Sequence record: SRR2962707_4525
DNA: 33,061 nt
Strand: one strand, 5' to 3'
Shown here: one piece after another, positions 2,563 through 17,184 of the stretch
Numbering within the stretch: the first letter of the stretch is position 1
Layout of the letters: every line of letters begins with the position of its first letter
The notes under the pieces: model-generated
What the model was told of the DNA's origin: nothing
Database searches by the model: none
Seen by the model: the letters and a program-made list of their open reading frames with translations, nothing else
Position numbers and translations under genes: made by a program

Positions 2563-2592
2563 ATAGAACCGGCAGAATTCTGCCGTTTCTAT
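2563..2592. terminator. 30-bp near-perfect palindrome between convergent genes (bidirectional terminator or recombinase site)
   Basis: ATAGAACCGGCAGAA|TTCTGCCGTTTCTAT, one mismatch; overlaps the recombinase TAG; followed by TTCTTTT on the + strand. Confidence 0.5.
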
Positions 2593-4199
2593 TTCTTTTG
2601 TCCAAGCACACGCACCATAGCGGGAAAGTCATATTCGATCACGCATGTACGATAGCAATGATCACTCAGAGCATCCCATTTGGCATGTATGTAATAGAGC
2701 TTCATTGTATGTCGCAACTGGGTGACGGCTTCAGGGTCTCGCGTCCACACCAGCAACTTATCAATTAACCGAAGAAACCGTTCATGGATTTCCTTGATGT
2801 TCGTAGGACGCGAGATTTCCTTGAGTTTTCGCTTTTCCCTGTCAATTTCGAGGCGGATCAACCGAACCTCTTCTGCGTTATCCTCAAGCCAAGCATTTCC
2901 ATTCAACAAATCAAGGCTATTTAGTATGTGTTCTGCCCGATCACGTAGCCCCTTAAGTCTGACTTCAGCGGTCTGGATGCGTTTGTTGACGCGCTCACGC
3001 TTTTCGACCATTTCGTCACTGTCATAGAACTGCGCAATGTCAGAAGTTTTGAGGCGTTGTGCTTCGCGTAGGACGACATCGATCAACTGATCATAGGGAA
3101 CAGACCTATGCGGGCAATTGGGGTTACTACAGGAATAGTGATGTGCCCAGTGTGCTCCGATCTTTGTGCCGTGTTCTGCGCATCTGAGGCGGCCAGCAAA
3201 GACTGCTGTAACGCGCTCTCTTGTTTTAATCTGCCGCTCACGCCAACTACGATTGAGATTCTTGTGAAGCTGCTTGGTCTCTTCAGGTGACCGCAACTTG
3301 ACCATTTCCCGATACTCGTTCGCTTTGCTTGAGCGCTCATCAAGCATTGACTGTACTTCATCAAAAACCTGATCATCGACAATTTGAAGTTCCGGGATCG
3401 GAACACGCACCCATTCATCCTCAGGGCGAACCACAGGCACTTTACGCCCCGTCGATGGGTTCTTTCGGTAGTGAAGTTTGTTGAATGTAACAATACCCTT
3501 GTAAAGCGTGTTACGGAGCAGGCCCGTTTTGCGGGATCGCGTGCCGACAAGGGTTGTTGAGTTCCATTTACCGCCGTTTGGCGATGCTATACTTTCCGCA
3601 TCCAACTCTTCACAGATGTATTTAAGCTTGTTGCCCGATTGATAGAGTTCAAAAATTTTCCGAACGGTTGCCGCCTCAGATTCAATGATCTGGCGCTTGC
3701 CCCGTATCGGTTCCCCACGTTCATCAAATGTACGGACGAGTTCATATCCATATGTGTTGCCACCGGGAACGCCACCACGCAGGACGGCCGAGACAACACC
3801 GCGATGGGTTTTGTCTGACAAATCCTTGAGATACAGAGCATTCATTGTACCCTTCAGGCCAATGTGAAGTTCGTTGATAATGCCCTCAGAAATGGTTTCG
3901 ACTTCAATGCCAACGAAACCCATTTTTTTGAAGAAGTTTGCTACGTCCCCCTGGTCTCGACTGATACGCGACAGATCTTCGCAAACAATCCGGTCAAATC
4001 GGTTGTCGAACGCGCCCATAAGCAAACTTGATATGCCCGGTCTGCTATCCATGTGAGCACCAGACATAGCTTCGTCGTAATACACGTCAATCACATGGTA
4101 TTTCTGAGCAGAGCAATGCCCTTCACATCTCACTATTTGATCTTGCGTACTGGTTGTTTGGCGGTCTGTAGAATGACGTGCGTAGATCGCAACTCTCAC
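2589..4199 (-). CDS. Large serine recombinase (resolvase N-terminus, recombinase domain, degenerate Zn ribbon, coiled coil)
   Basis: MRVAIYARHST with catalytic Ser10; SGAHMDSRPG; DLSRISR; YGY; LRNTLYKG; IVDDQVFDEVQ; LRCAEHG...YSCSNPNC; coiled-coil tail. Confidence 0.93.
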   Translation of the reverse strand: MRVAIYARHSTDRQTTSTQDQIVRCEGHCSAQKYHVIDVYYDEAMSGAHMDSRPGISSLLMGAFDNRFDRIVCEDLSRISRDQGDVANFFKKMGFVGIEVETISEGIINELHIGLKGTMNALYLKDLSDKTHRGVVSAVLRGGVPGGNTYGYELVRTFDERGEPIRGKRQIIESEAATVRKIFELYQSGNKLKYICEELDAESIASPNGGKWNSTTLVGTRSRKTGLLRNTLYKGIVTFNKLHYRKNPSTGRKVPVVRPEDEWVRVPIPELQIVDDQVFDEVQSMLDERSSKANEYREMVKLRSPEETKQLHKNLNRSWRERQIKTRERVTAVFAGRLRCAEHGTKIGAHWAHHYSCSNPNCPHRSVPYDQLIDVVLREAQRLKTSDIAQFYDSDEMVEKRERVNKRIQTAEVRLKGLRDRAEHILNSLDLLNGNAWLEDNAEEVRLIRLEIDREKRKLKEISRPTNIKEIHERFLRLIDKLLVWTRDPEAVTQLRHTMKLYYIHAKWDALSDHCYRTCVIEYDFPAMVRVLGQKK

Positions 4200-5651: not shown

Positions 5652-5712
5652 CATTACCTTGACTAGATATGTGTGCATGTGTTCTTAATGACCCTTCATT
5701 ATGGAGGGGTGA

Positions 5713-6849
5713 ATGACTGAATATACTCTGGACAACAAATCGCAAAGAATACCGCTACAGCTTGACCAAGACGAGTTGGTCAAACTTGATGAGCTGGGGG
5801 CTCGGCTATCTACGACGAGAAACCAAACTATCCGTTTGTTGATACAAAGAGAGATTTCAGTTCCCCGGATTGCAATTCCAGAACCCCGTACTGGAGAGGT
5901 TTTTCGGGTAGCCCAAGGTGCATATGGTGAGACAACGGAAATCCGTATGAAGAACGGTCGTGTTTTGCACTTCTACGTTGCTCCCTATCGCAATCGTTGT
6001 TGTATTCTGCTACTCGACCCTGAAATGACAGAGTCAGTTGGCTATCCAAACTACGATGAACTTTACGGGGATTCCGATGTTCTGGATGCTATTCTGGACT
6101 TGCGAGAGACGAAATATGATTGGGATGATCCGAGGTATCGGAACATTTGCAAATCGCTAAACATTGACCCCGACGAGAAACGGCCACAGTTCGTCAAAGA
6201 ATTCGAGCGGATTGCACGAGGGTTATCGAACCGTCAGGCTCGGTTCAGTTACATTTCCCCACATTGGGAACTGCTGCTTGATCTGGTTGACCTACTGCGA
6301 TCTGACATTCAGCCGACCCTCCAAATGCTCAACAGGGCAAAAGAGAGGTTCGACACATTGTCGGCGAAGGAACGTCCAGATGTTTATAATCAGGCGTTCA
6401 TCGCTGCCGAAAGTCGGAAATTGCCTTCTGAGCATCGTTTAACGACAGATATTATATTCCTGCCGAGCTGGACTGATTGCTACTGGAATAAGCGTGTTGG
6501 CCTTTGGGAATGCAAAGAGTGTGATGATGATGGGTGGACATCGGGCCATAATCACGACTTGCATGGTGTTGCCGCATTGCCGTCAGGAAAGCTTAATGAT
6601 GTTCAGGCCGTGATAGTTCAGAAACTTAAAAAGCAGGGTGTCATTTTCCTGAATGCGGGCGAAGTTCAGGATTACCTAAACAACGAGGGGGCTTACTGGG
6701 CTTGGAAAAACCTGACAATTAGGAAAGTTTTCGAAGGGCATCATGGTGCACGAAAACCAACAACGTCTGAAAAGATGAAATGGCGAATGCGTAAACCTGA
6801 AACGCCATTATATGACCGATGGTTGGGGCGACAGGAAAGAGCAGCTTGA
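5713..6849 (+). CDS. Hypothetical protein with N-terminal ribbon-helix-helix-like segment and CxxC..HxH motif
   Basis: GGAGGGG RBS; 378-aa ORF. QRIPLQLDQDELVKLDELGARLSTTRNQTIRLLI fits the RHH pattern. WECKEC...GHNHDLH in the C-terminal third. Confidence 0.75.
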   Translation: MTEYTLDNKSQRIPLQLDQDELVKLDELGARLSTTRNQTIRLLIQREISVPRIAIPEPRTGEVFRVAQGAYGETTEIRMKNGRVLHFYVAPYRNRCCILLLDPEMTESVGYPNYDELYGDSDVLDAILDLRETKYDWDDPRYRNICKSLNIDPDEKRPQFVKEFERIARGLSNRQARFSYISPHWELLLDLVDLLRSDIQPTLQMLNRAKERFDTLSAKERPDVYNQAFIAAESRKLPSEHRLTTDIIFLPSWTDCYWNKRVGLWECKECDDDGWTSGHNHDLHGVAALPSGKLNDVQAVIVQKLKKQGVIFLNAGEVQDYLNNEGAYWAWKNLTIRKVFEGHHGARKPTTSEKMKWRMRKPETPLYDRWLGRQERAA

Positions 6850-6951
6850 TATAGCTAAACTCTTGACCCGGACAAACCACGGGATTGCTGTTCAAGGATG
6901 TTGATTCCGGTTATAATTTTATGATCCGATTTGAATGCAGGTGCCCTGATA

Positions 6952-7338
6952 ATGGCAACTAGAGAACAGCTCGACGATAGTTATCGTCCGTTGACGCAAT
7001 CAGAACTCCAATCGCTGAAGCACGATATGCAGAATTCACTGCATATGATGCAGCAACAGGCATTTCTGAAGTCAATGGCGAAACGCTATATCTGGTGGAA
7101 GTCCCCAGATGAAGCGATTGCCAACCCGGACAGGGTACTTGCACAGCTCATGAACATCGGCGATTTCGATGATGTTGTCGAAATGGTCAAGCTTTTCGGG
7201 AATGAAAGACTTGGCCATGTTGTCAGTAACGCTGTGGCCGGCTGGTTTAATGAACGCTCCTGGTCTTACTGGCATTATCGACTAGGGCTTGCCGACATTG
7301 ATCATGTTCCGGCAATACCTGTGCGACGGTTCGATTGA
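6952..7338 (+). CDS. Putative antitoxin partner of the AbiEii-like nucleotidyltransferase
   Basis: ATG 6952 with GCAGGT upstream and TATAAT at 6912-6917. KRYIWW..P......RVLAQLMNIGDFDD..SWSYWHYRL resembles the small proteins found upstream of AbiEii-type NTases. Its stop abuts the next start. Confidence 0.75.
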   Translation: MATREQLDDSYRPLTQSELQSLKHDMQNSLHMMQQQAFLKSMAKRYIWWKSPDEAIANPDRVLAQLMNIGDFDDVVEMVKLFGNERLGHVVSNAVAGWFNERSWSYWHYRLGLADIDHVPAIPVRRFD

Positions 7339-7340
7339 CG

Positions 7341-8330
7341 ATGGCATTCTTACCTCGCATGGACATTCTCCCAGATGCTCAACGCGATCTTTGGCCAGAT
7401 TTCAAGGATGTCACGCAGCAGGGCTGGGTGCTGTATGGTGGGACAGCCGTTGCCCTCAGGTTAGGCCACCGACAATCCGTGGATTTCGATTTTTTCTCTG
7501 ATAGGCCCCTTGATCGAGATGGATTGCAGTCCGCGTTCACGGCCCTGAATGACAGCAGAGTCATTCAGGAGGAGCAGAATGCGATAACACTTCTGGTTAA
7601 CCCCCCCGGCAACACTGAAGACACCGTTAAAGTCTCTTTCTTTGGAAATATATCGACTGGTCGGGTGGCAACACCAGACATGACGGATGATGGTGTGCTT
7701 CAGGTTGCCGCACTTGATGATCTGATGGCTATGAAGCTAAAGGTCATACTTCAACGGGCCGAGGCGAAGGACTATCGCGATATTGCAGCTATGGTCGATG
7801 CAGGCATACATGTGGATCAGGGGCTTTCTGCGGCACGCCAGATGTTCGGGGATACTTTCCAGCCGAGTGAAAGCCTCAAGGCGATGACCTTTTTCGGGGA
7901 CGGAGATCTCCACACGCTGACATCCAAGGAACGCGCTACTCTCGTCAATACAGCAAGTGCAGTTAGCCGGCTGCCCGACGTGGCGTTGAAATCGAGAAGC
8001 TTGATAGATGAGCGCAATATTCAGGTACAGATTCCGCATGCCCTGAAACCATATCAGGCAGCACGGGAAAAACTGGAGAACTCTGGTGCTTCCGAGCCGG
8101 AAACCGCAGTAGCGCGTCGTAAACTGGCAATTGCACAGAGCTACTTTGATAAAGGGCTACTGGATGTGCCTGGAGCACATTCCGAGAAGATCCGCGAACA
8201 GGCACTTCAGGAAGCACGACAGACAATTGCAGAACCATCATCCACTGATACATTGAAATCAAGAACGACAGCCGAAAAGCCCGAGAAGCAAACGATCAAG
8301 AAATCCCGGGGCACGGGGTTCGAAATGTAA
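7341..8330 (+). CDS. AbiEii/AbiGii-family nucleotidyltransferase toxin with C-terminal extension
   Basis: LYGGTAVALRLGHRQSVDFDFF (GG..DxD NTase motif) and MKLKVILQRAEAKDYRDI (K..R..KDxxD). ATG 7341, or TTG 7335. Confidence 0.9.
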   Translation: MAFLPRMDILPDAQRDLWPDFKDVTQQGWVLYGGTAVALRLGHRQSVDFDFFSDRPLDRDGLQSAFTALNDSRVIQEEQNAITLLVNPPGNTEDTVKVSFFGNISTGRVATPDMTDDGVLQVAALDDLMAMKLKVILQRAEAKDYRDIAAMVDAGIHVDQGLSAARQMFGDTFQPSESLKAMTFFGDGDLHTLTSKERATLVNTASAVSRLPDVALKSRSLIDERNIQVQIPHALKPYQAAREKLENSGASEPETAVARRKLAIAQSYFDKGLLDVPGAHSEKIREQALQEARQTIAEPSSTDTLKSRTTAEKPEKQTIKKSRGTGFEM

Positions 8331-8341
8331 TCCCGAAAGAC

Positions 8342-11300
8342 TTACTTGATAGACCGGCCGACTTTTTGCGTAGGCTTCGTGTCTTTCTGCTTCTGCTTAA
8401 TCCCGACCGAGCGCAGCGTATCAGAAACCTTGCTCCGGTCACTTCCTTTGAGAAGATCCCCAAATGACATGCTGTTGCGCTTTTTGTCATGCTCTGAAAG
8501 CGGCGGCACCAGCACCTCGGCTTTGATAGCTTGAGCGGCTTCTCTCGCGAGATCAAGCGGGATGTTCTCCTTTGCCATATGGGCATCCATGGCAGCAAAG
8601 AGTATCTCGCGATCAGGATTATAGCGGCGGATGTTCTCACCAACAGCTTTGAGATTTTCTGAATTAACTGCCCATACGACGGGCTTGCGGGTATGACGGT
8701 TCAGTTCAATGGCGCTTGTCAGGTCATCGGCAATCAGAATTGGTTCGGTTGGGTCTTTGGATATTCGTCCCCCAACAATGTGATGCGCCCCTTTAATGCC
8801 GCCAGTTCCGGCGAGTGTTTCGACTGATCCACTTGGAGAAACACGATACACGCCAGAAAGTCGATTTCCGCCGTCTCGAAGCGGAATAAGGGTATTGCCC
8901 TCACCGTCAACCCGGAACCCGCTCCACGCCCTCTCAGACCCCATTTCTGGACGCGAGGAGATCTTGTCCGTGTCGGGGCGGATGGCGGATTGCCATGCCA
9001 GCCATCCGTCATCACCAACCATATTCGCCATTTCACTTCGAAGAGCAGTTAAAGACGGCGTTGTTTCGGGATCTGGCAAGACTTCTGCTTTCCAGATGTT
9101 TCGATGGGTGACGGCTTGTCTCGTCTGAAGGGTGCCGTTTTCATCTCGATACGGCTCTTTAACAACAACTTCCTTGCGTTCAGATATTTCAAGTGAAATC
9201 CAGTCTCCGGTTTGAGCGCCAGACTGGCTCACAACATCTGCAACATCGACACCCCAGACGTAACGTTCAGAACCGTTAACATCTTGCAGCTTGGCATAAC
9301 TGGAATTGGATTTATCAGGATCAAAATCAAAATGATCGTGCCCAAAATCGAGTAACCGTGCGCCGGCTCGGGTTGGTTCATGTTTGGCGTACTCTTTGAA
9401 AGAGGTAGCAAGTGCCGGTCGGACAATATCCACGGCCAGCTTTTCAGCTTTGGCGACGTCGTCCTGCTGACCGGACGCATCAAGGGCAATGATAATATTT
9501 ACATCGTTGTTCCGAAGCCTGATCTGTTCGGTGGTTTCGGCCCATGAATGTGCATCAGCCGGCACAACAACAGGACAGCGTGTCGCACGATGAATTGCCG
9601 CTGCATCTGCATAATTCAGGGCCACGACAATCGTATCCTTTTCCTCACGCCATTGAGGATCAATCATATGGTAGCAGGGGTGGTCTGGCTCTGTGGACTG
9701 CACAAGATCCTGACGGCCCATGTCGTCGATTAAAATCACGTTCTCTATACGGCCCGAACGGTCTTTAAGAGGGACTGCGACATCACCGGATTTTGTGATC
9801 TTCACCCCATAGCCACGCAGGCCATTCGTTTTAAGCCAGTTGGAGTTCCCCGGTGTTGCCCACTGTCCGCATTCGTCCCATACAAGAAAAGCTTGATCGT
9901 TGACTGCATGCGCAAATGTGCGACGCAGTTTTGTAAGATCATCATCATTTGGCATGGTGACAGATCGCACATTCGGCAAAGTGATTGGCGTTTTAGTGGC
10001 CACAATCGGTTTTACCATTGGATTGCGGTGACGGTGTTCTGTGATCGTCTTTCGGAGATCCTTCGCATCGGGAACGAAGACGACAGGGCGACGGGTCGCA
10101 TCATGTATTTTGACCGCATCAACATAGTCATCGGTAAAAATGACAGGGCCTCTATCGGACTGCTTCCGTGAATCTATGAGATGCGTCAACCCGCGAGCTT
10201 TAACATTCCCTATCTGCATGCGCTTGCCGTCGGGTGCATAGATGCTCACCCTTTGCATGTAACCGTTGGCATCCTTCAAAGGCACTATCAGATTACCTTT
10301 GTCGTCAATCCGACATCCCCGGCCTGTAGATCGTGAAGCAGCCAACCAGTTAAGCGATTTTGCACTGGCCCATTGGCCGGCTTCACGCCAAGCCGCCAGA
10401 GCTGGTGCTGCCAACTTCGAAACCGGGGTAGGTTTGTCATCCCCAAAGACCATATGAAGGAATTCCTGCTGGGCGATCAGGAAAACCATGGCCATTGGAT
10501 CTTTGTATGCTTCACTGAGCAGAAACAGCTTCCAATTGGAAATCGTCCGCTGGAAGAATGTGCGCCTTGTATGCATCGGCTTTTGCAAGTTCAGGTAACG
10601 CCGCCAGATTGGCGACATCGCAGGGTGTCGCATGTTGGGGCGTTTTTTATACCGTCGTTTGGGAGACGGGGATTTCTTCTCGCCATCTTCAGCTATAGGA
10701 GGTGTGAAACTACCGAGCTTTTTCTCAAGTGCAGTCTTACTTACCTTGCGGTCCAGTGCTGATGCTTTCATTCCTTGGCCGTCAGGACCAACCAGAACAA
10801 AACCATTGCCTCGTTTTTTTAACGTGAGGTCATATTCGGCTAAAGTTTTATGCAGATCTTGCCAAGTCTCGGCACCGTTGATGTGGCCAAGAATCTCTTT
10901 ACGATGCTGGAGAACATGATTCTGGAAGCTTTCCTGCCATGTCTGGGCTTCATAATCGCGAGCAGATGGTGACAGTTTAGGTCCATGATTGCCGCTCTGG
11001 GACATGCCTTTGTCGATAAACAGTCCGTACTCTTTTTCAAGTTTGCGCGATACACGATCAAGCACTTTGTAATCGCGATAGGGGGTGACGACCTGGAGTG
11101 TTCTCGGATGGATCTTGTTAAATGCGATGTGCATATGAAAATTGTCGGTATTGATATGCGTTCCTGCCACATATTGGTGTTCAGCATATCCAAGCCCTTT
11201 GGCATATGCCGAAGCAATTTCCTTGAGATCCTTTTCAGACAGTTGGTCTTTTTCCCCGGGACGGAAAGAAACTATCATGTGGTATGACTTGTCTGTAATT

Positions 11301-11497
11301 TCAGGCTTCATACGACGAACCGCATACACTTCGCGTAGCGCCAGTTCCAGATCGTCGAGCGTTTCACCTGAACCGCAGTTTGATATCCAGAATTTGTCGA
11401 GCTTTTCTCCGGGTTCTTTTGCCGCCGCGATGTATTCGGCCAGTGCCTTGAAATTGTCAGCTACATCGGGCTTCTTAGGGATTTTCTTGGCGATCAT
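8342..11497 (-). CDS. traI: MOBP (RP4 TraI-type) relaxase with three degenerate TOPRIM-like C-terminal repeats
   Basis: MIAK start, catalytic Tyr22 (LAEYI), motif II YHMIVSFRPGE, motif III HINTDNFHMHIAFNKIHP, then TWQDLH..L...GNG and MKASAL. ATGA overlap with the upstream traJ. Confidence 0.93.
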   Translation of the reverse strand: MIAKKIPKKPDVADNFKALAEYIAAAKEPGEKLDKFWISNCGSGETLDDLELALREVYAVRRMKPEITDKSYHMIVSFRPGEKDQLSEKDLKEIASAYAKGLGYAEHQYVAGTHINTDNFHMHIAFNKIHPRTLQVVTPYRDYKVLDRVSRKLEKEYGLFIDKGMSQSGNHGPKLSPSARDYEAQTWQESFQNHVLQHRKEILGHINGAETWQDLHKTLAEYDLTLKKRGNGFVLVGPDGQGMKASALDRKVSKTALEKKLGSFTPPIAEDGEKKSPSPKRRYKKRPNMRHPAMSPIWRRYLNLQKPMHTRRTFFQRTISNWKLFLLSEAYKDPMAMVFLIAQQEFLHMVFGDDKPTPVSKLAAPALAAWREAGQWASAKSLNWLAASRSTGRGCRIDDKGNLIVPLKDANGYMQRVSIYAPDGKRMQIGNVKARGLTHLIDSRKQSDRGPVIFTDDYVDAVKIHDATRRPVVFVPDAKDLRKTITEHRHRNPMVKPIVATKTPITLPNVRSVTMPNDDDLTKLRRTFAHAVNDQAFLVWDECGQWATPGNSNWLKTNGLRGYGVKITKSGDVAVPLKDRSGRIENVILIDDMGRQDLVQSTEPDHPCYHMIDPQWREEKDTIVVALNYADAAAIHRATRCPVVVPADAHSWAETTEQIRLRNNDVNIIIALDASGQQDDVAKAEKLAVDIVRPALATSFKEYAKHEPTRAGARLLDFGHDHFDFDPDKSNSSYAKLQDVNGSERYVWGVDVADVVSQSGAQTGDWISLEISERKEVVVKEPYRDENGTLQTRQAVTHRNIWKAEVLPDPETTPSLTALRSEMANMVGDDGWLAWQSAIRPDTDKISSRPEMGSERAWSGFRVDGEGNTLIPLRDGGNRLSGVYRVSPSGSVETLAGTGGIKGAHHIVGGRISKDPTEPILIADDLTSAIELNRHTRKPVVWAVNSENLKAVGENIRRYNPDREILFAAMDAHMAKENIPLDLAREAAQAIKAEVLVPPLSEHDKKRNSMSFGDLLKGSDRSKVSDTLRSVGIKQKQKDTKPTQKVGRSIK

Positions 11498-11920: not shown

Positions 11921-14900
11921 TTAAACCGTCATATGATTTGACTGATTGAGCTGCTTCTTCGCCGTTACCTGTATGGATTTCCCCCGTCCGACAGAAACGC
12001 CAAGATCCGCAAGCTGTTTTCTCACGTCCTTGCGGAATTCATCAAACCCACGACTTACGTGCAGATCATTGAAATCCGTAAGACCTTGCAGTTTGTCCTC
12101 GGACGAAAGAGGTGGTTTGAGAATACTTGCATCTGAACGACCGGCGGCCTTGTTCGCAGCATTCAAACCTGGATTGAAGCCAACTTTTTCGACCTGCTTA
12201 TGGTCGTCGTCAGCAGCAATCAAATGCTGACGTTCGGGGTTTTGCTTGTGAAGGGCTTCGGCCACGACCGCAAGGTTTCCGCCGTCCATTGCAACAACAG
12301 CTGTAAACCCGGTTGCGGCATTCAGGCTTTTTGCCGTGGCATAACCTTCAGCAATAATCCACGGCTTGTCTTTCTTGCCCGGGATAACGTGCATTAAACC
12401 GGATTTCTTACCGTCCTTAAGATAGCGTTTGGTCCCATCTGGTTTGATGGTTTGCACATTTTCAATGAAGCCCTTCTCATTCGTCATTGGCATGATCAGA
12501 TTGCCCTCACGATCAATACGCAAGGTTTCGCCCGATACCTGCTTGCGTTTCAGATAGGGGTGATCGTTGCTGGCTTCGATTGCATTCTGGAATGTCGCAT
12601 AAGCTCGTTTCGCCGTTTGACGATACTGGAAGCGCAGTTCTTGTTCCTGTTCTGCTTTGCGAGCCGCAGATTGAGCTTTGACTTTTTCAAGCTCTACCGG
12701 ATCCATTTTAGTGCCACTGGCCACCCATTTTACCGGCTCACCGGCGGTTTTGAAATTCATGATCTGGCCAGCAGGAATACCTTCAAGAAATCCGCGATAG
12801 CTTCCGCTGGTTTTACCTTTGACATCACCGTTAACCGATACACGATGCCACTTACCGTCCATCTCGGCCGGTCCATCCAGAACTAAGCCGTTTTCACGAC
12901 AAGCAGCAGAAAATTCCAGTTGTGGATCGATCTTCTGATCAGATGATGGTTCGACTTTCTTCTGCCATTTGGCAAAAGCTTTCATGTCAGATCCTTCGTG
13001 AACGAACCATGCCTTATCGCGGCGGTCCCATTTGGCACCGAGGGCCTTGGCTTCATTCTTCTCTCGGAAGGGTACAGAGAGATAAACGCGTTTTTTTTCT
13101 GCATCGGTTGTGTCGGGAGCGTCTTTAATCGATCCGACCATAGCACTTGCCTCCTGACTTCTCTTTTTTTCCTTCTCATCCCGCGCTGCGAGAACCGTGT
13201 TGATAGAGCCTTCAGCAACATCTATTCCCATGTCACCATTTTCCAGTCCGGTGGCCTGCTTACGGATCGCCGTATGTAGTTTTTCCACTTCAGGGGTTAG
13301 GTAAGTGTACCGGTGATTGGAACCGTCATTGTACCAGTCATTGCCAATGATAGTGGTCTCTCGGCCACCTGCGACTATCGACAGATTAGACATCCCGAAA
13401 GGTCGAGAGCCTTCAAGGCCTCTTACAGCTACACCCAAAGAATCAAAGTTTTGCACGTCCCCCATTCCGTCCAGTTTATAAATACGGGTGCTGGGTTTTG
13501 CTGAATCATTAATAGCTTTCCTCTGCGTGAGATCGTTCTGCTGGTTTTGGATTGATTGATTAATCGGGCCATTTGAAAGACTTATTTCGAGTGGTTCACG
13601 CAGGCGATTGAGATGCTCATCTTTGCGCTGTTCGGCGGGCACATGCCATTCCGGTTTCTGGACGTGGGCTTTTGGCCTGGGACCATCCAGATCCCATAAA
13701 GCCGAGGCCAACTCGCGATGAAGCGGCGACGCCAATGCTTCACCTTCCATCAATGACAGTGTTTCGTCCCGGTGCGCGATGCCAGTAGCACGGCGTTCCG
13801 GCGAAGCTGCATAGTCTGCGACCCAATCAATCTTTTGGAATTGCTCGGCAAGCTGAGCGAATGCGTGATGTTCCTCATCATAGCCAGGCACAATAGAGGC
13901 AAAGCTGCCCCAGTTGGCGGCTTCTGCTGTCTGTCCGAGAAAGCGCCTAAGGTTATCGTTGGAAAGGTCGGATGCTTTCAATCCTTCCTTGATTTGATCA
14001 GCTGAGAGTTGTTCCTTGTTTTCACGATTTCCTGCAAGTACCAGCGTATCTTGAATATCTATCGCCCACAGGGTCGGGTGTGCGTGTGGATGGTTCTCGA
14101 ACATATGGTTGACAATTTCTTCACGCTCGACTGCCATTTTGTCATGTTGCGCCATGTTGACCGTCTGGCCGACTACCAACGGCTGATCTTGAGCCATAGC
14201 CTGTTGCCGTTCTTTGGCCGGTGTGAGTTCAAGACGTTTTTCCGGTTCCATGATCCACGTTTTGATCACTTCGGCGTCACGGGCGGCCTGAAACAGCACA
14301 TTGCGATCTTCCTTGATCGCTGTCATCCAACCTTCAATGTAGCTTGCGTGGCGTTCAGGATAGTGGCCAAGCCCCAGTTCAGTTGTCGTCATGAAAGAGG
14401 CTATCTCTGCCCGAAGCTCTTCGCGAGCATAGGATTCAGAACCAAAGGGGCCACCTTCGCGTGCAAGCCGCGAATGATGGCCAGTTGAATGGCCGCCTTC
14501 ATGCAGAGCGGTCGCGTAATATTCATACTGACCTTTGAACAACCCTTTTGGCGGCATATGGATTTCATCCGCCCCGGGTTGATAGAATGCGCGGTCACGC
14601 TGATCGTGAAAGATAGGAACATTGAGGTCGGAAAGAACCTGTTCAGCCCGTTCGACAGGGTTGAAATTTGGTTCCTGGCCGATGAACGGTTCAAGCCCAT
14701 CGATCTGCGAGCCGTTGAAGACGACAGCGTGAAACACCTTGGGACGCTCCAGCCGTACTTCTTGATAGAGTTGCTTGCCCTGGTCGTTGAGGATTGGAGC
14801 TCCGCTATTATCTGTCATTGGTCGCCGGTCGGACCATTGCCAATATTCAATTTGAGTGCCTTTCTCACCCTTTCGCACCTGATAACCATTGGCTTGTGAC

Positions 14901-15109
14901 TGGCGATAGGTCGTCCAACGAGGATCTGCGTAGCCTTGAGCTTCGAGCCAGATCTGGTTCATGCCACGATAGGGTTTGCCCGTGGCAGGATTGAATGCTG
15001 GAACGCGAACGTTGTCGGGTTCCCAGGGTTTTTGCCAAGGAGCGGTGCCGGCAGCAATTTGATCGATCAGCGTATCAACGACTTGATCGCGGAAATTTTT
15101 CTTAACCAT
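11921..15109 (-). CDS. traC: TraC-type ArdC/zincin/DUF5710/TOPRIM DNA primase fusion (1062 aa)
   Basis: ATG 15109 with GAGGAGG RBS. ArdC N-terminus (GTAPWQKPW, YRGMN, DPRWTTYRQ, VRKGEKG); HEGGH zincin motif and YAREELRAEIAS; YLSVPFREKNEAKALGAKWD; primase IAEGYATA, AADDD, TDFNDL. Confidence 0.92.
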   Translation of the reverse strand: MVKKNFRDQVVDTLIDQIAAGTAPWQKPWEPDNVRVPAFNPATGKPYRGMNQIWLEAQGYADPRWTTYRQSQANGYQVRKGEKGTQIEYWQWSDRRPMTDNSGAPILNDQGKQLYQEVRLERPKVFHAVVFNGSQIDGLEPFIGQEPNFNPVERAEQVLSDLNVPIFHDQRDRAFYQPGADEIHMPPKGLFKGQYEYYATALHEGGHSTGHHSRLAREGGPFGSESYAREELRAEIASFMTTTELGLGHYPERHASYIEGWMTAIKEDRNVLFQAARDAEVIKTWIMEPEKRLELTPAKERQQAMAQDQPLVVGQTVNMAQHDKMAVEREEIVNHMFENHPHAHPTLWAIDIQDTLVLAGNRENKEQLSADQIKEGLKASDLSNDNLRRFLGQTAEAANWGSFASIVPGYDEEHHAFAQLAEQFQKIDWVADYAASPERRATGIAHRDETLSLMEGEALASPLHRELASALWDLDGPRPKAHVQKPEWHVPAEQRKDEHLNRLREPLEISLSNGPINQSIQNQQNDLTQRKAINDSAKPSTRIYKLDGMGDVQNFDSLGVAVRGLEGSRPFGMSNLSIVAGGRETTIIGNDWYNDGSNHRYTYLTPEVEKLHTAIRKQATGLENGDMGIDVAEGSINTVLAARDEKEKKRSQEASAMVGSIKDAPDTTDAEKKRVYLSVPFREKNEAKALGAKWDRRDKAWFVHEGSDMKAFAKWQKKVEPSSDQKIDPQLEFSAACRENGLVLDGPAEMDGKWHRVSVNGDVKGKTSGSYRGFLEGIPAGQIMNFKTAGEPVKWVASGTKMDPVELEKVKAQSAARKAEQEQELRFQYRQTAKRAYATFQNAIEASNDHPYLKRKQVSGETLRIDREGNLIMPMTNEKGFIENVQTIKPDGTKRYLKDGKKSGLMHVIPGKKDKPWIIAEGYATAKSLNAATGFTAVVAMDGGNLAVVAEALHKQNPERQHLIAADDDHKQVEKVGFNPGLNAANKAAGRSDASILKPPLSSEDKLQGLTDFNDLHVSRGFDEFRKDVRKQLADLGVSVGRGKSIQVTAKKQLNQSNHMTV

Positions 15110-15341
15110 TGCCCAACACCTCCTCGATGGCGGTAGGATCCTCGCCGTCAAAATGACTGTCCAGTGCAGCATCCATAGACAGCGCCTGTTCATCGAAAGC
15201 GCCCATGGCTTCGGCAACATCGGGATCGACAGAAACAGGGCCAAGATCACTTGCCGCCGAGACGGCCTGTGTCGCGAGTTTGAGATATTCTGTTTCGTTT
15301 AACCGGGCGTTGGCGCCCTTGATGTTTTCAGGCTGCTTCAT
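15102..15341 (-). CDS. traD: IncP TraD-like small acidic protein
   Basis: VDPDVAEAMGAFDEQALSMDAALDS resembles recalled IncP TraD (FDPEEAERAGAFVEDALSEQDA); sits directly before traC as in RP4; GGAG RBS. Confidence 0.7.
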   Translation of the reverse strand: MKQPENIKGANARLNETEYLKLATQAVSAASDLGPVSVDPDVAEAMGAFDEQALSMDAALDSHFDGEDPTAIEEVLGNG

Positions 15342-17184
15342 GGGTATTCTCCGTTGCTGAAGGCATGTTGCGGTGAACAGGGGAGGGTTGCATTTCAGGT
15401 GGTGGCATCTGAGAGCGACGGTTTAGCTCTTTGTCGAGGAAATAGAGGTTTTGCGTGCCATGGATTGGCGGAATGCCCGCAACAAAGATCAATGAATCGC
15501 CGGGCTGTGCTTTCTTGCCCTCTGTATCGATGACAGGCAGGCGCATACATTCATCTGCGGTAAGAAGAGGCCGAGATGTTTCTTGAATATTGTCGGAATT
15601 TGATCCTGACATCTGACCGGATTTGCCCGATTGAGAACGCCGTTTCTGCACAATCGTGGTGCGGCCACTCATGTCTGAAATCAGCTTTGCTGTTTCAAGC
15701 TTGTTTGGCGTAAAGGCGATACGCACTTTCGAATTGGCCATAAGCGATTCATCTTTGCCGTAACATTTATGAAGCTGCTCGACATTCTGGAAAATCATGT
15801 ATGCCCGGATGCCGTATCCGGCCATGAACGCGAGCGATTCCTCCAGCACTTCCATTTTCCCGAGGGCTGCCAACTCATCGAGCATTAAAAGAAGTGGATG
15901 CTTATAACTTGCGGCCAGACTTTCAGTTTGCCGGCGTAAAAACATGTTCAGCATAATTCTGATCAAAGGCCGAAGACGGTCTTTATCCGCAGGGCTGACG
16001 ACAAGGTAAAGGGCCATCGGACGATCACCGTTCATCAGATCAGACAAGCGGAAGTCGCTTGTTGATGTGTTTCTTGCAATGATTGGATCGGCAAACACTG
16101 TGAGTTGTGTTTTTGCGTTGGAATGGACGCCAGAGCGTTCCTGCGGAGCTTTAATAGCCAAACTGTTTGCGCCGCGACGGACCTCTGTGTTGACGTGCTT
16201 GAGGCCGTGTTCATATTCAGCCATGGCTTCAAGGATCTTCACGAAGTTGTCCTGGGCGGACATTTGATCATCCCGGTCTTCGGCGGATGCCCCGGGGCGG
16301 GCAGCTTCCAATGCATCGGCTGGCGGTTTCACGGTTGAAATGCCTGAAAGGAACGTATTTACATCGTCAAAACAGGCGACGCGGTTCTCTTCTTTCCGGG
16401 TTTTGTATAGGACATGGAGCAATACGACAGAGAGCCAGCCATACCCTTCTTGTCGCCAGTAATCGTGCATCCCTTTGCCGTCTGGATCGATGATCATCTG
16501 AGCGATGTTTTGGCAGTCGCCAATGTCTCGTTCTGTATCAATGCGGATCTCAGCAAGTGGATTGAAACGGGATGACCCACTGATTGCGGCCGGCTCGAAC
16601 TTTTCTACCCGAATGCCAAAGAACTTCAGCCAACCGGCCGTTTTCGTGTAGTTCTCTCCCTTGATGTCAAGCGTGAGGCTAGAATGAACCCATGTGAGCA
16701 ATGTCTCAACAATCAGGGATACACCCTTGCCAGTACGAGTAGCAGCCCAAACCAGCACATGTTCTGGCCCTTTGTGGCGAAGCACTTTGATTTTGCCCCG
16801 CCAAGTTCTGATCGCACCAACGACAACAGAATCACCCGCCTTGCGCAAAAGACGCGCCTTGCGGATGTCTTTTAGTGTGGCCCAACGTGCGGAGCCGTGT
16901 AGTTCATTTCCTTTCCGAGATCCGGCAACAGTATCGTTACGTGCACGGGCAAGAAGAACACCAACTACCACCATCAAAGCTGTACCGGCGATTGCCGTGT
17001 AAACCGCAGGCATGAGCATTTCATCGGGCAGGCCGGCAGGGTGTGAGATTGCAGCAGCAAGCCATTGCCACCAAGCAGGGTCCCTCGGGTCGAAACCAAC
17101 AGAAAGATACCACTGACCTATAATGCCGGCGATCATGCCGAGGAAAATGACGACGAGGAAGAAATGACAAATGCGTTGGCTCAT
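15328..17184 (-). CDS. virD4: Type IV coupling protein VirD4/TraG
   Basis: Two N-terminal TM helices, HGSARWA, EHVLVWAATRTGKGVS (Walker A), DIKGEN, FNPLAEIR, LLMLDELAALG (Walker B), RPLLTADE. Confidence 0.95.
   Translation of the reverse strand: MSQRICHFFLVVIFLGMIAGIIGQWYLSVGFDPRDPAWWQWLAAAISHPAGLPDEMLMPAVYTAIAGTALMVVVGVLLARARNDTVAGSRKGNELHGSARWATLKDIRKARLLRKAGDSVVVGAIRTWRGKIKVLRHKGPEHVLVWAATRTGKGVSLIVETLLTWVHSSLTLDIKGENYTKTAGWLKFFGIRVEKFEPAAISGSSRFNPLAEIRIDTERDIGDCQNIAQMIIDPDGKGMHDYWRQEGYGWLSVVLLHVLYKTRKEENRVACFDDVNTFLSGISTVKPPADALEAARPGASAEDRDDQMSAQDNFVKILEAMAEYEHGLKHVNTEVRRGANSLAIKAPQERSGVHSNAKTQLTVFADPIIARNTSTSDFRLSDLMNGDRPMALYLVVSPADKDRLRPLIRIMLNMFLRRQTESLAASYKHPLLLMLDELAALGKMEVLEESLAFMAGYGIRAYMIFQNVEQLHKCYGKDESLMANSKVRIAFTPNKLETAKLISDMSGRTTIVQKRRSQSGKSGQMSGSNSDNIQETSRPLLTADECMRLPVIDTEGKKAQPGDSLIFVAGIPPIHGTQNLYFLDKELNRRSQMPPPEMQPSPVHRNMPSATENTHEAA

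Follow-up and report, generated by a model that had tools for sequence, protein, structure and literature searches.

An AbiEii-family nucleotidyltransferase toxin of an integrative conjugative element appears to have captured the C-terminal domain of a KfrC-like protein

Why should a toxin gene of a conjugative element run on for 106 codons past the end of its enzymatic domain, and what could the added part do? The question is raised by a 33,061-nucleotide (nt) stretch of DNA from sequence record SRR2962707_4525 (hereafter the window), which is an integrative conjugative element (ICE) with a VirB/D4 type IV secretion system (T4SS) according to open reading frame (ORF) calls and profile searches of the window ORFs. 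The gene encodes an AbiEii-family nucleotidyltransferase (NTase), the putative toxin of a toxin-antitoxin (TA) pair, and a preliminary description of the locus proposed that its C-terminal extension resembles a T4SS translocation signal. Sequence comparison indicates that the protein is very probably a chimera, in which an AbiEii toxin was fused to the captured C-terminal domain of a KfrC protein and has retained it since. Among the grounds for this conclusion are three observations: the same tail ends KfrC-like proteins in the same slot of sister elements, a kfrC relic lies upstream, and a tail-less relative of the toxin ends at the junction.

The toxin ORF (7335-8330, plus strand) encodes 331 amino acids (aa) from a TTG codon, or 329 aa from an alternative ATG start at 7341. 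Its NTase core occupies aa 1-225 (7335-8009, plus strand): aa 29-176 match the Pfam family AbiEii (PF08843; E 2.1e-17, 64.3 bits against a cut-off of 22.5), and eight PADLOC AbiEii models match the toxin as well. The NTase motifs had been described as intact, and the near-invariant columns of a 46-row alignment are indeed present (Y32 G33 G34 T35, D48 F49 D50 and K143 D144 Y145 R146 D147); we take the YGGT, DFDF and KDYRD residues to be the catalytic motifs. AlphaFold2 models the core confidently, with a per-residue score (pLDDT) above 90, and the core ends with LPDVALKSRSLID (aa 213-225). From nt 8010 onwards follows an extension of 106 aa whose last residues read KPEKQTIKKSRGTGFEM; as the preliminary description had it, it is helical first and then disordered. 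The ORF coordinates likewise agree with the placement given there, behind a small partner gene and with the toxin ORF ending at 8330, 11 nt from the stop codon of the convergent relaxase gene traI (8342-8344), and the C-termini of TraI and TraC read as they were quoted.

Is the extension extra relative to homologues, as had been supposed? A homologue search scored 8000 candidates and returned 5092 proteins at E<=0.001, and lengths were taken from the best 120. Among these, 111 are 219-249 aa long, cover 65-69% of the query and lack the tail, so the supposition holds. The other nine are at least 263 aa long; only P0002 (329 aa, 71% identical) has the window's tail, and the remaining long forms have unrelated tails. 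Thousands of stand-alone AbiEii/AbiGii NTases (~227 aa) are 52-63% identical to the window core and share its partner family and overlapping gene pair, but they end at about aa 225-249, whereas the window toxin has a tail beyond. A tail-less toxin 88% identical to the window's (P0003/P0271; 223 aa, on three contigs) ends exactly at the junction. Another member of the family, P0014 (316 aa, 11 members, contigs up to 5.2 kb), is 61% identical over the core and carries a KfrB domain (PF18790; E 3.7e-6, 27.3 bits against a cut-off of 25) as its C-terminal extension; it is a second, independent fusion of this NTase toxin family to a Kfr-type plasmid-survival module. On PLSDB plasmids, tblastn with the toxin found seven records, all at most 40% identical and all without the tail, and megablast of the locus against plasmids gave no match. 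We also came across a 340-aa long-form toxin in Serratia marcescens and Aeromonas caviae (P0023/P0246/P0247) with a ~110-aa tail of no known family, which is common to P0072 and P0085, belongs to a cluster of 81 members and was not found on PLSDB plasmids.

Where else, then, does the window's tail occur? Searching 1.84 billion representatives with the tail alone, phmmer returned six matches. Besides the window protein, these include a fragment of 114 aa that shares 97% identity with the tail and two fragments of another protein. P0122 and P0123 were rejected as tail relatives because they are internally repetitive and matched in 5-8 stretches. A whole-toxin search of 61 related genomes gave one full-length match (G001, 99%) and three matches to the tail only, in frames of 361-367 aa (G027, G030 and G035). 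These three proteins have a phosphoribosyltransferase (PRTase)-like head with the motif YLVFDDTLTMGGT and many sub-threshold PRTase matches over the phosphoribosyl pyrophosphate (PRPP) loop; their tails are 38-48% identical to the window's and end KKSREPGLEI, KKNPGPKLDI and KKQTGPKLDM, against KKSRGTGFEM in the window. When the metagenome loci L047-L049 are included, the tails of such KfrC-like PRTase proteins span 38-55% identity. A profile of the tail matched four of the 37 genomes of the family (a single genus), none of 400 other genomes sampled across the class, and five metagenome loci. It gathered 12 protein clusters longer than 186 aa, ten with a PRTase head and two with an NTase head, and the whole of the window tail can be aligned with the C-terminal domains found in the ten KfrC-like clusters (E 1e-29 to 1e-43).

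The tail also keeps to one genetic setting. All nine tail-bearing loci examined sit in T4SS-bearing ICEs of this one family, which bears out the expected co-occurrence of the extension with T4SS genes; a serine recombinase homologue (62-100% identity) lies 1-6 kb from every tail-bearing gene examined, and wherever the contig is long enough, homologous TraI and coupling protein are found within ~20 kb. In G027 a homologue of the window's 378-aa ORF, the PRTase-tail gene, a 184-aa ORF and a convergent traI follow one another in what is the window's slot. Coupling proteins at least 55% identical to the window's occur in 18 of the 37 genus genomes and the tail in four, which marks the gene that bears it as an accessory of a single sub-lineage of the ICE; this gene is missing from the closely related G010 ICE, whose coupling protein is 85% identical. 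Sister ICEs differ in what they carry next to the kfrC-like gene, and this cargo resembles defence genes: a SIR2_2-domain protein (E 4.5e-15) adjoining a 483-aa ORF and a 448-aa ORF without Pfam family in one (L047:5771-11565), and a Cas3 HD-domain gene (E 1.1e-26) in G030 (L006:2466-3389).

The identity of the native tail bearer follows from its head. The PRTase head has 246 relatives, of which the E. coli, P. aeruginosa, Vibrio, Shewanella and Xanthomonas plasmid ones are 57-68% identical, and the C-terminal regions of these relatives are of several unrelated kinds or absent. P0227, which represents the 355-aa type, shares 97.2% identity with the KfrC gene on an Aeromonas hydrophila plasmid of 45,909 bp and hence with RA3 KfrC; P0141, of the 448-aa type, shares 86.9% with the kfrC region in the IncP-1alpha plasmid pBS228, between kfrB and traM, and the last 150 aa of this type match IncP-1beta KfrC. 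Aligned with hhalign, the Thalassospira proteins match RA3-type KfrC with a probability of 100% and 59% identity over 243 columns, DDT motif included, up to the point where the tails begin. A relationship of the tail itself to RK2- or RA3-type KfrC C-termini was rejected, since hhalign aligns the proteins no further than the PRTase domain reaches. Judged by sequence, the protein of the sister ICEs belongs to the KfrC family and has a C-terminal domain of its own; the window tail is this domain. KfrC-family heads carry at least six kinds of tail (counting RK2, RA3 and Thalassospira), besides tail-less forms.

Compared with KfrC of RA3 (and RK2/IncP-1alpha KfrC, upf54.4), then, the sister ICEs carry in the window's slot a KfrC-family protein with a ~105-aa alpha-helical, lineage-specific C-terminal domain of its own. 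The window gene differs from KfrC in its head, an AbiEii NTase in place of the N-terminal PRPP-binding PRTase domain (~240 aa) that the sister-ICE proteins have; its tail shares no detectable homology with the RA3 or RK2 C-terminal domains, and yet it has what is typical of them, being lineage-specific, predicted to be alpha-helical and predicted to serve in interaction. The host elements differ too, IncP and IncU plasmids against an ICE with a serine recombinase. In RA3 KfrC, the PRTase head (1-249) is toxic when overproduced unless the DDT motif is mutated, and the C-terminal 112-115 aa were called unique by the authors (PMC8124265). Other KfrC-family PRTase heads bear further unrelated tails (P0190, 358 aa, on which the annotation lists PF21775; P0149; P0213). 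In pBS228 (L044, NC_008357.1), the tblastn match to the 448-aa PRTase-KfrC spans 1344 nt (5670-7013) and the PLSDB gene table has only a 525-nt 'KfrC family protein' coding sequence at 6492-7016; the table therefore leaves out the PRTase head of IncP-1alpha KfrC.

How did this domain come to stand behind an NTase? A decayed kfrC-like relic (6966-7070, plus strand; codons ~214-248) lies upstream of the toxin and under the start of the partner gene. In a three-frame translation it reads ..SVDAIRTPIAEARYAEF.. in its own frame, with stop codons before it, and it is closed by stops in the kfrC frame. Positions 6987-7040 have ~80% DNA identity (blastn, 45-54 nt) to the stretch just before the tails in the kfrC-like genes of L009, L010, L011 and L047, and local alignments extend this to 6966-7070 with scores of 47-60, against a maximum of 29 in 200 shuffles. 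The kfrC-like gene is intact in L047, the locus with the closest recombinase (94.8% identical). On the simplest account, a ~970-nt partner-plus-toxin cassette landed in a kfrC-like (PRTase-tail) gene, at a point from codon ~248 to codon ~258. This gene lost its 5' two thirds, which destroyed its PRTase head, and the toxin lost its stop and now reads in frame into the 106-aa kfrC tail. Around the cassette we found only short two-copy repeats and no insertion signature. The last 45 nt of the L047 contig (11909-11953) are 100% identical to window positions 7887-7931 in the NTase core, with no homology in the adjacent bases; they lie 6 kb from the intact kfrC-like gene of that contig, and either an overlap in the assembly graph or a second copy of the toxin in truncated form may account for them.

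One indication of whether the tail has been kept for a reason comes from P0002, which is 29% diverged from the window protein. Its 105 aligned tail codons are open with a single in-frame gap of 1 aa, and it keeps every residue that is the same in all of the eight tails aligned (I8, L12, Y15, A18, L22, E31, A35, L39, A42, G49, L51, P54, G55, I61 and R62). Between P0002 and the window the heads are 78% and the tails 55% identical; native KfrC-like pairs with 76-86% head identity have tails 47-70% identical, and the fused tail therefore evolves at the native rate.

The tail has three parts. The folded part (8010-8231, plus strand) comprises three helices according to the alignments and a tail-only AlphaFold2 model, at tail residues 10-25, 29-47 and 58-74 (pLDDT ~85 over residues 11-70), followed by ~30 disordered residues; the full-length model agrees, with tail helices to about aa 297 (pLDDT 65-87) and the last ~30 aa disordered. 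Conservation peaks in helix 2 (LAIA), in the turn G-x-L-D-V-P-G-A and at the start of helix 3 (I-R..A..E). A variable linker (8232-8297, plus strand) is predicted to be disordered (pLDDT <60), and its columns are not conserved. The extreme C-terminal motif, KKSRGTGFEM plus the stop codon (8298-8330, plus strand), follows the pattern basic-basic-x-x-G-P/T-x-hydrophobic-D/E-M/I and forms the very end of all eight aligned tails on both head types, one of them divergent (P0142, RGRDPGLGM). The tail is only mildly basic: its net charge is +3 for all 106 aa and +2 for the final 20, and its last residues are F-E-M.

Does the tail resemble a known secretion signal? At E<=1, Pfam gave only a chance-level ATP-synt_DE match and no BID domain, although a weak or missing BID match does not prove that the folds differ. 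The tail profile matched PDB sequences with a best E of 0.68 and nothing related to BID or XVIPCD, in a profile bank expected, from the XVIPCD paper, to include the XVIPCD nuclear magnetic resonance structure. Foldseek with the tail-only model against the PDB found generic helical proteins (best E 0.21, TM 0.33) and none at E<=0.001, and the best score of an ESM Atlas feature search, 0.77, lies under that tool's stated noise level, so that the name of its top cluster, 'Mobilization protein (Fragment)', was given no weight.

The toxin's companion is a small gene (6952-7338, plus strand) whose product we regard as a putative antitoxin and whose stop overlaps the toxin start. The ORF is also readable from 6931 and encodes at most 128-135 aa. 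Because its first ~35-40 codons overlie the kfrC relic in a different frame, its true start may be internal; the conserved core begins at about nt 7054. In L002, L003 and L004, which represent a Paraburkholderia genome and two Synergistaceae bins, a member of the partner family (41-50% identity, with matches that start at partner aa 14 or 35) lies directly 5' of a short-form toxin, and the pairing recurs in a Campylobacter plasmid. Within 10 kb of the Paraburkholderia and Synergistaceae short forms (three loci), no homologues of the window T4SS genes were found. The gene upstream of the toxin does not encode an AbiEi-type antitoxin, which has a winged helix and a C-terminal domain; the partner is a protein of ~90-130 aa that matches no Pfam, NCBIfam or PADLOC family. 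Some MenT and AbiEii toxins act on tRNA, and MenT toxins nucleotidylate tRNA ends and thereby block translation. AbiE of ICESa2603 stabilises an ICE in Streptococcus suis (PMC11062541).

What might the retained tail do? We see about an even chance that it is an ICE-specific docking module of a TA toxin acting in the ICE-bearing cell. The partner and the NTase would work there as an ordinary TA module, as the conserved partner-toxin pairing in L002-L004 and the Campylobacter plasmid suggests, serving addiction or stabilisation and possibly abortive infection, and the NTase would probably block translation by nucleotidylating tRNA ends, as MenT toxins do. The three-helix domain, flexible linker and conserved basic C-terminal peptide would together tie the toxin to whatever partner they normally served in KfrC. 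By analogy with RA3 KfrC, this would be the coupling protein, the partition complex or both, or the tail may simply self-associate; export into recipients would be possible but not required. The docking role is plausible because the C-terminal 112 aa of RA3 KfrC, an equivalent though non-homologous domain, dimerise and bind KorB and VirD4 in bacterial two-hybrid (BACTH), co-immunoprecipitation and colocalisation experiments, from which the RA3 authors propose a switch between partition and transfer (PMC8124265).

Several points weigh against a docking role. The binding partner of the tail is a candidate by analogy, and hhalign detects no homology between the tail and the RA3 C-terminal domain. 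RK2 and R751 KfrC did not bind their TraG proteins in BACTH, and the RA3 authors link a strongly acidic VirD4 C-terminus to KfrC binding (PMC8124265), a feature that the window's coupling protein lacks (net -1 to -2 over its last 46-60 aa). On the toxin side, toxicity and neutralisation by the partner are putative, and the partner matches no named family in Pfam, NCBIfam or PADLOC. Finally, there are only two NTase-tail clusters, and the near-identical copies L001 and L045 show three non-synonymous and three synonymous changes in the tail, too few to speak of selection.

A second reading, which we consider unlikely, is that the coupling protein recognises the tail as a genuine T4SS translocation signal. 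The NTase would then be injected into recipients, as would the KfrC-like PRTase of the sister ICEs. Only recipients that later receive the partner gene would then be rescued, or the enzyme would counter host defences there. The signal-like character claimed in the preliminary description survives in part: the tail is a transferable C-terminal module on two unrelated enzyme heads, with a conserved basic end after a disordered linker, but it is a KfrC C-terminal domain and not a generic basic tail, and its net charge is only mildly positive. Its confinement to one T4SS-bearing ICE family, with all five metagenome loci in the ICE, fits an export signal, and so do the at least six tails on KfrC heads across plasmid lineages, as expected if a tail must match its element's machinery. 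That the positional equivalent in RA3 KfrC binds VirD4, behind a PRTase head toxic when overproduced, points the same way (PMC8124265). That paper does not, however, address translocation, and its RK2 and R751 results imply that binding to the coupling protein is not general among KfrC proteins; the window's coupling protein, as noted, lacks the acidic C-terminus, and association of the KorB type, or of the tail with itself, would account for the same observations. In the window, G027 and G010, the long-form TraI proteins have a loosely similar ending, basic-G-x-x-I-D/E/K, yet this likeness, seen in three of five long-form relaxases, is too short to be assessed. No conserved immunity gene neighbours the KfrC-like genes, which fits a killing effector poorly, and the tail gene is absent from the G010 ICE despite the close relationship.

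Injection also draws on parallels with known systems. TA toxins repeatedly became T4SS substrates by independent fusions; transfer has been demonstrated for VbhT, and that of FicT and PezT with their BID domains is inferred (PMC5675462). The layout of the window, a TA toxin with a C-terminal extension beside a relaxase gene and a conjugative VirB/D4 system, mirrors that of VbhT/VbhA (Bartonella pVbh), FicT and PezT, and in this respect the earlier comparison with VbhT was apt (PMC5675462). The differences are that those toxins are of the FIC or zeta type against an AbiEii NTase, that their extension is a BID domain and the window's a KfrC-derived, non-BID one, that a VbhT-type gene lies downstream of the relaxase gene and the window's toxin gene is convergent with it, and that transfer is established for VbhT and a candidate property of the window toxin. 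XVIPCD, which consists of a folded VirD4-binding part and a disordered tail needed for translocation, offers an architectural parallel: in the Xanthomonas/Stenotrophomonas T4SS effectors (X-Tfe) it is a C-terminal module of ~100-120 aa on varied enzymatic heads, built like the window tail (PMC8740702). Its C-terminal peptide is glutamine-rich, in contrast to the basic one of the window tail, no sequence or fold match to it was found, any more than to BID, by Pfam, PDB profile and Foldseek, and its T4SS is a dedicated killing system, the window's a conjugative one.

A bolder extension of the injection reading, doubtful and in our view less probable again, holds that the lineage-specific C-terminal domains of KfrC proteins are new, fast-evolving coupling-protein recognition signals, that the PRTase, a potentially toxic enzyme, is injected with the DNA and that an AbiEii toxin aimed at tRNA hijacked the signal. 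If this were true, recipients would be poisoned ahead of the DNA and rescued only by a whole element with the partner gene, which would amount to addiction before arrival or to exclusion of abortive matings. A search for the IncP-type nick motif YATCCTGY gave two matches against 3.7 expected and located neither the origin of transfer (oriT) nor nic, so that the placement of the antitoxin on the late-transferred side of nic in the preliminary description, and with it the order in which toxin and partner would enter a recipient, is conjectural.

Could the tail be a passive leftover instead, an appendage of a chance in-frame insertion that the toxin tolerates and that does nothing for it? In favour of this, kfrC was destroyed in the same event, of which a dead relic remains upstream, about one junction in three would be in frame by chance, the two NTase-tail clusters stand against more than 5000 tail-less relatives, and the 3:3 ratio among close copies gives no signal. 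Against this, P0002 has kept its tail open with the invariant residues in place despite its divergence, at a tail-to-head identity ratio within the native KfrC-like range; the junction falls exactly at the toxin's natural end; and a second Kfr-type fusion arose independently in P0014. We therefore hold a passive leftover to be improbable. Some other purpose outside the conjugation and partition machinery (control of toxin stability by a degradation tag at the C-terminus, an association with membrane or DNA, or a hold on the partner antitoxin) is very improbable: a conserved C-terminal peptide after a flexible linker would also suit protease or adaptor recognition, and RA3 KfrC met host membrane proteins in library screens (PMC8124265), but the restriction of the tail to one ICE family, with none in 400 other class genomes, argues for an ICE-encoded partner, and short-form toxins use the same partner family without any tail.

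The remaining genes of the window complete the picture of the element. A large serine recombinase gene (2589-4199, minus strand; Pfam Resolvase, Recombinase and Zn_ribbon_recom) marks the ICE end beside the slot. The 378-aa ORF (5713-6849, plus strand), unassigned to a family, has a 74% identical homologue in L010 and L048, there followed by the kfrC-like gene and traI, is conserved at this identity directly upstream of the intact kfrC-like gene in the G027 sister ICE, and is absent from L047. By eye it has a ribbon-helix-helix (RHH)-like N-terminus and a Cys-rich C-terminal part; its identification as KfrA was rejected, since it has no KfrA_N or other Pfam match and no long coiled coil by eye, and no KfrA or KfrB homologues were recognised among the window ORFs scanned. 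The MobP-type conjugative relaxase TraI (8342-11497, minus strand; Pfam Relaxase and TraI_middle, NCBIfam TraI_MobP_relax at 299 bits) is convergent with the toxin gene and is accompanied by an RHH accessory protein and a TraC-like protein with ArdC, metallopeptidase and Toprim domains (11921-15250). Repeated segments in the C-terminal half of TraI and the C-terminal, Toprim-containing region of the TraC-like protein match one another at 24-34% identity (TraC aa ~900-1063 in the comparison with TraI, TraI aa 384-1033 in that with TraC), and the T4SS substrates TraI and TraC therefore have a common repeated module.

The type IV coupling protein of the VirD4/TraG family (15328-17184, minus strand; Pfam T4SS-DNA_transf, E 5.5e-92) is the candidate docking partner of the tail, and VirB11, VirB10, VirB9, VirB8, VirB6 and VirB4, ParA and a Bro-N protein are encoded in the window as well. 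In four genus genomes, coupling-protein homologues ~69% identical to the window's have a single in-frame TGA in an otherwise full-length match (G028:C29:333040-334842, G031:C74:310-2097, G025:C17:125609-127396 and G015:C1:2846654-2848441); their scores are identical in three of the four and the open-frame length is the same in all. A shared pseudogene or a recoding site is possible.

In the literature searched, KfrC is not combined with toxin-antitoxin and nucleotidyltransferase, nor AbiEii with 'translocation signal'. The chimera links two lines that we did not find connected, the Kfr proteins of IncP and IncU plasmids, one of which binds VirD4, and TA toxins as substrates of conjugative T4SSs. 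The NTase-tail and PRTase-tail proteins form a natural pair with one candidate signal, which makes the choice between an adaptor to the coupling protein and a secretion signal directly testable. If the tail does not direct export, the locus remains a clear case of a domain captured through the insertion of a cassette in an ICE cargo slot. A conjugative element can, on this evidence, re-aim an enzyme: a ~100-aa C-terminal module very probably moved from KfrC to a TA toxin in a single insertion, and was then kept.

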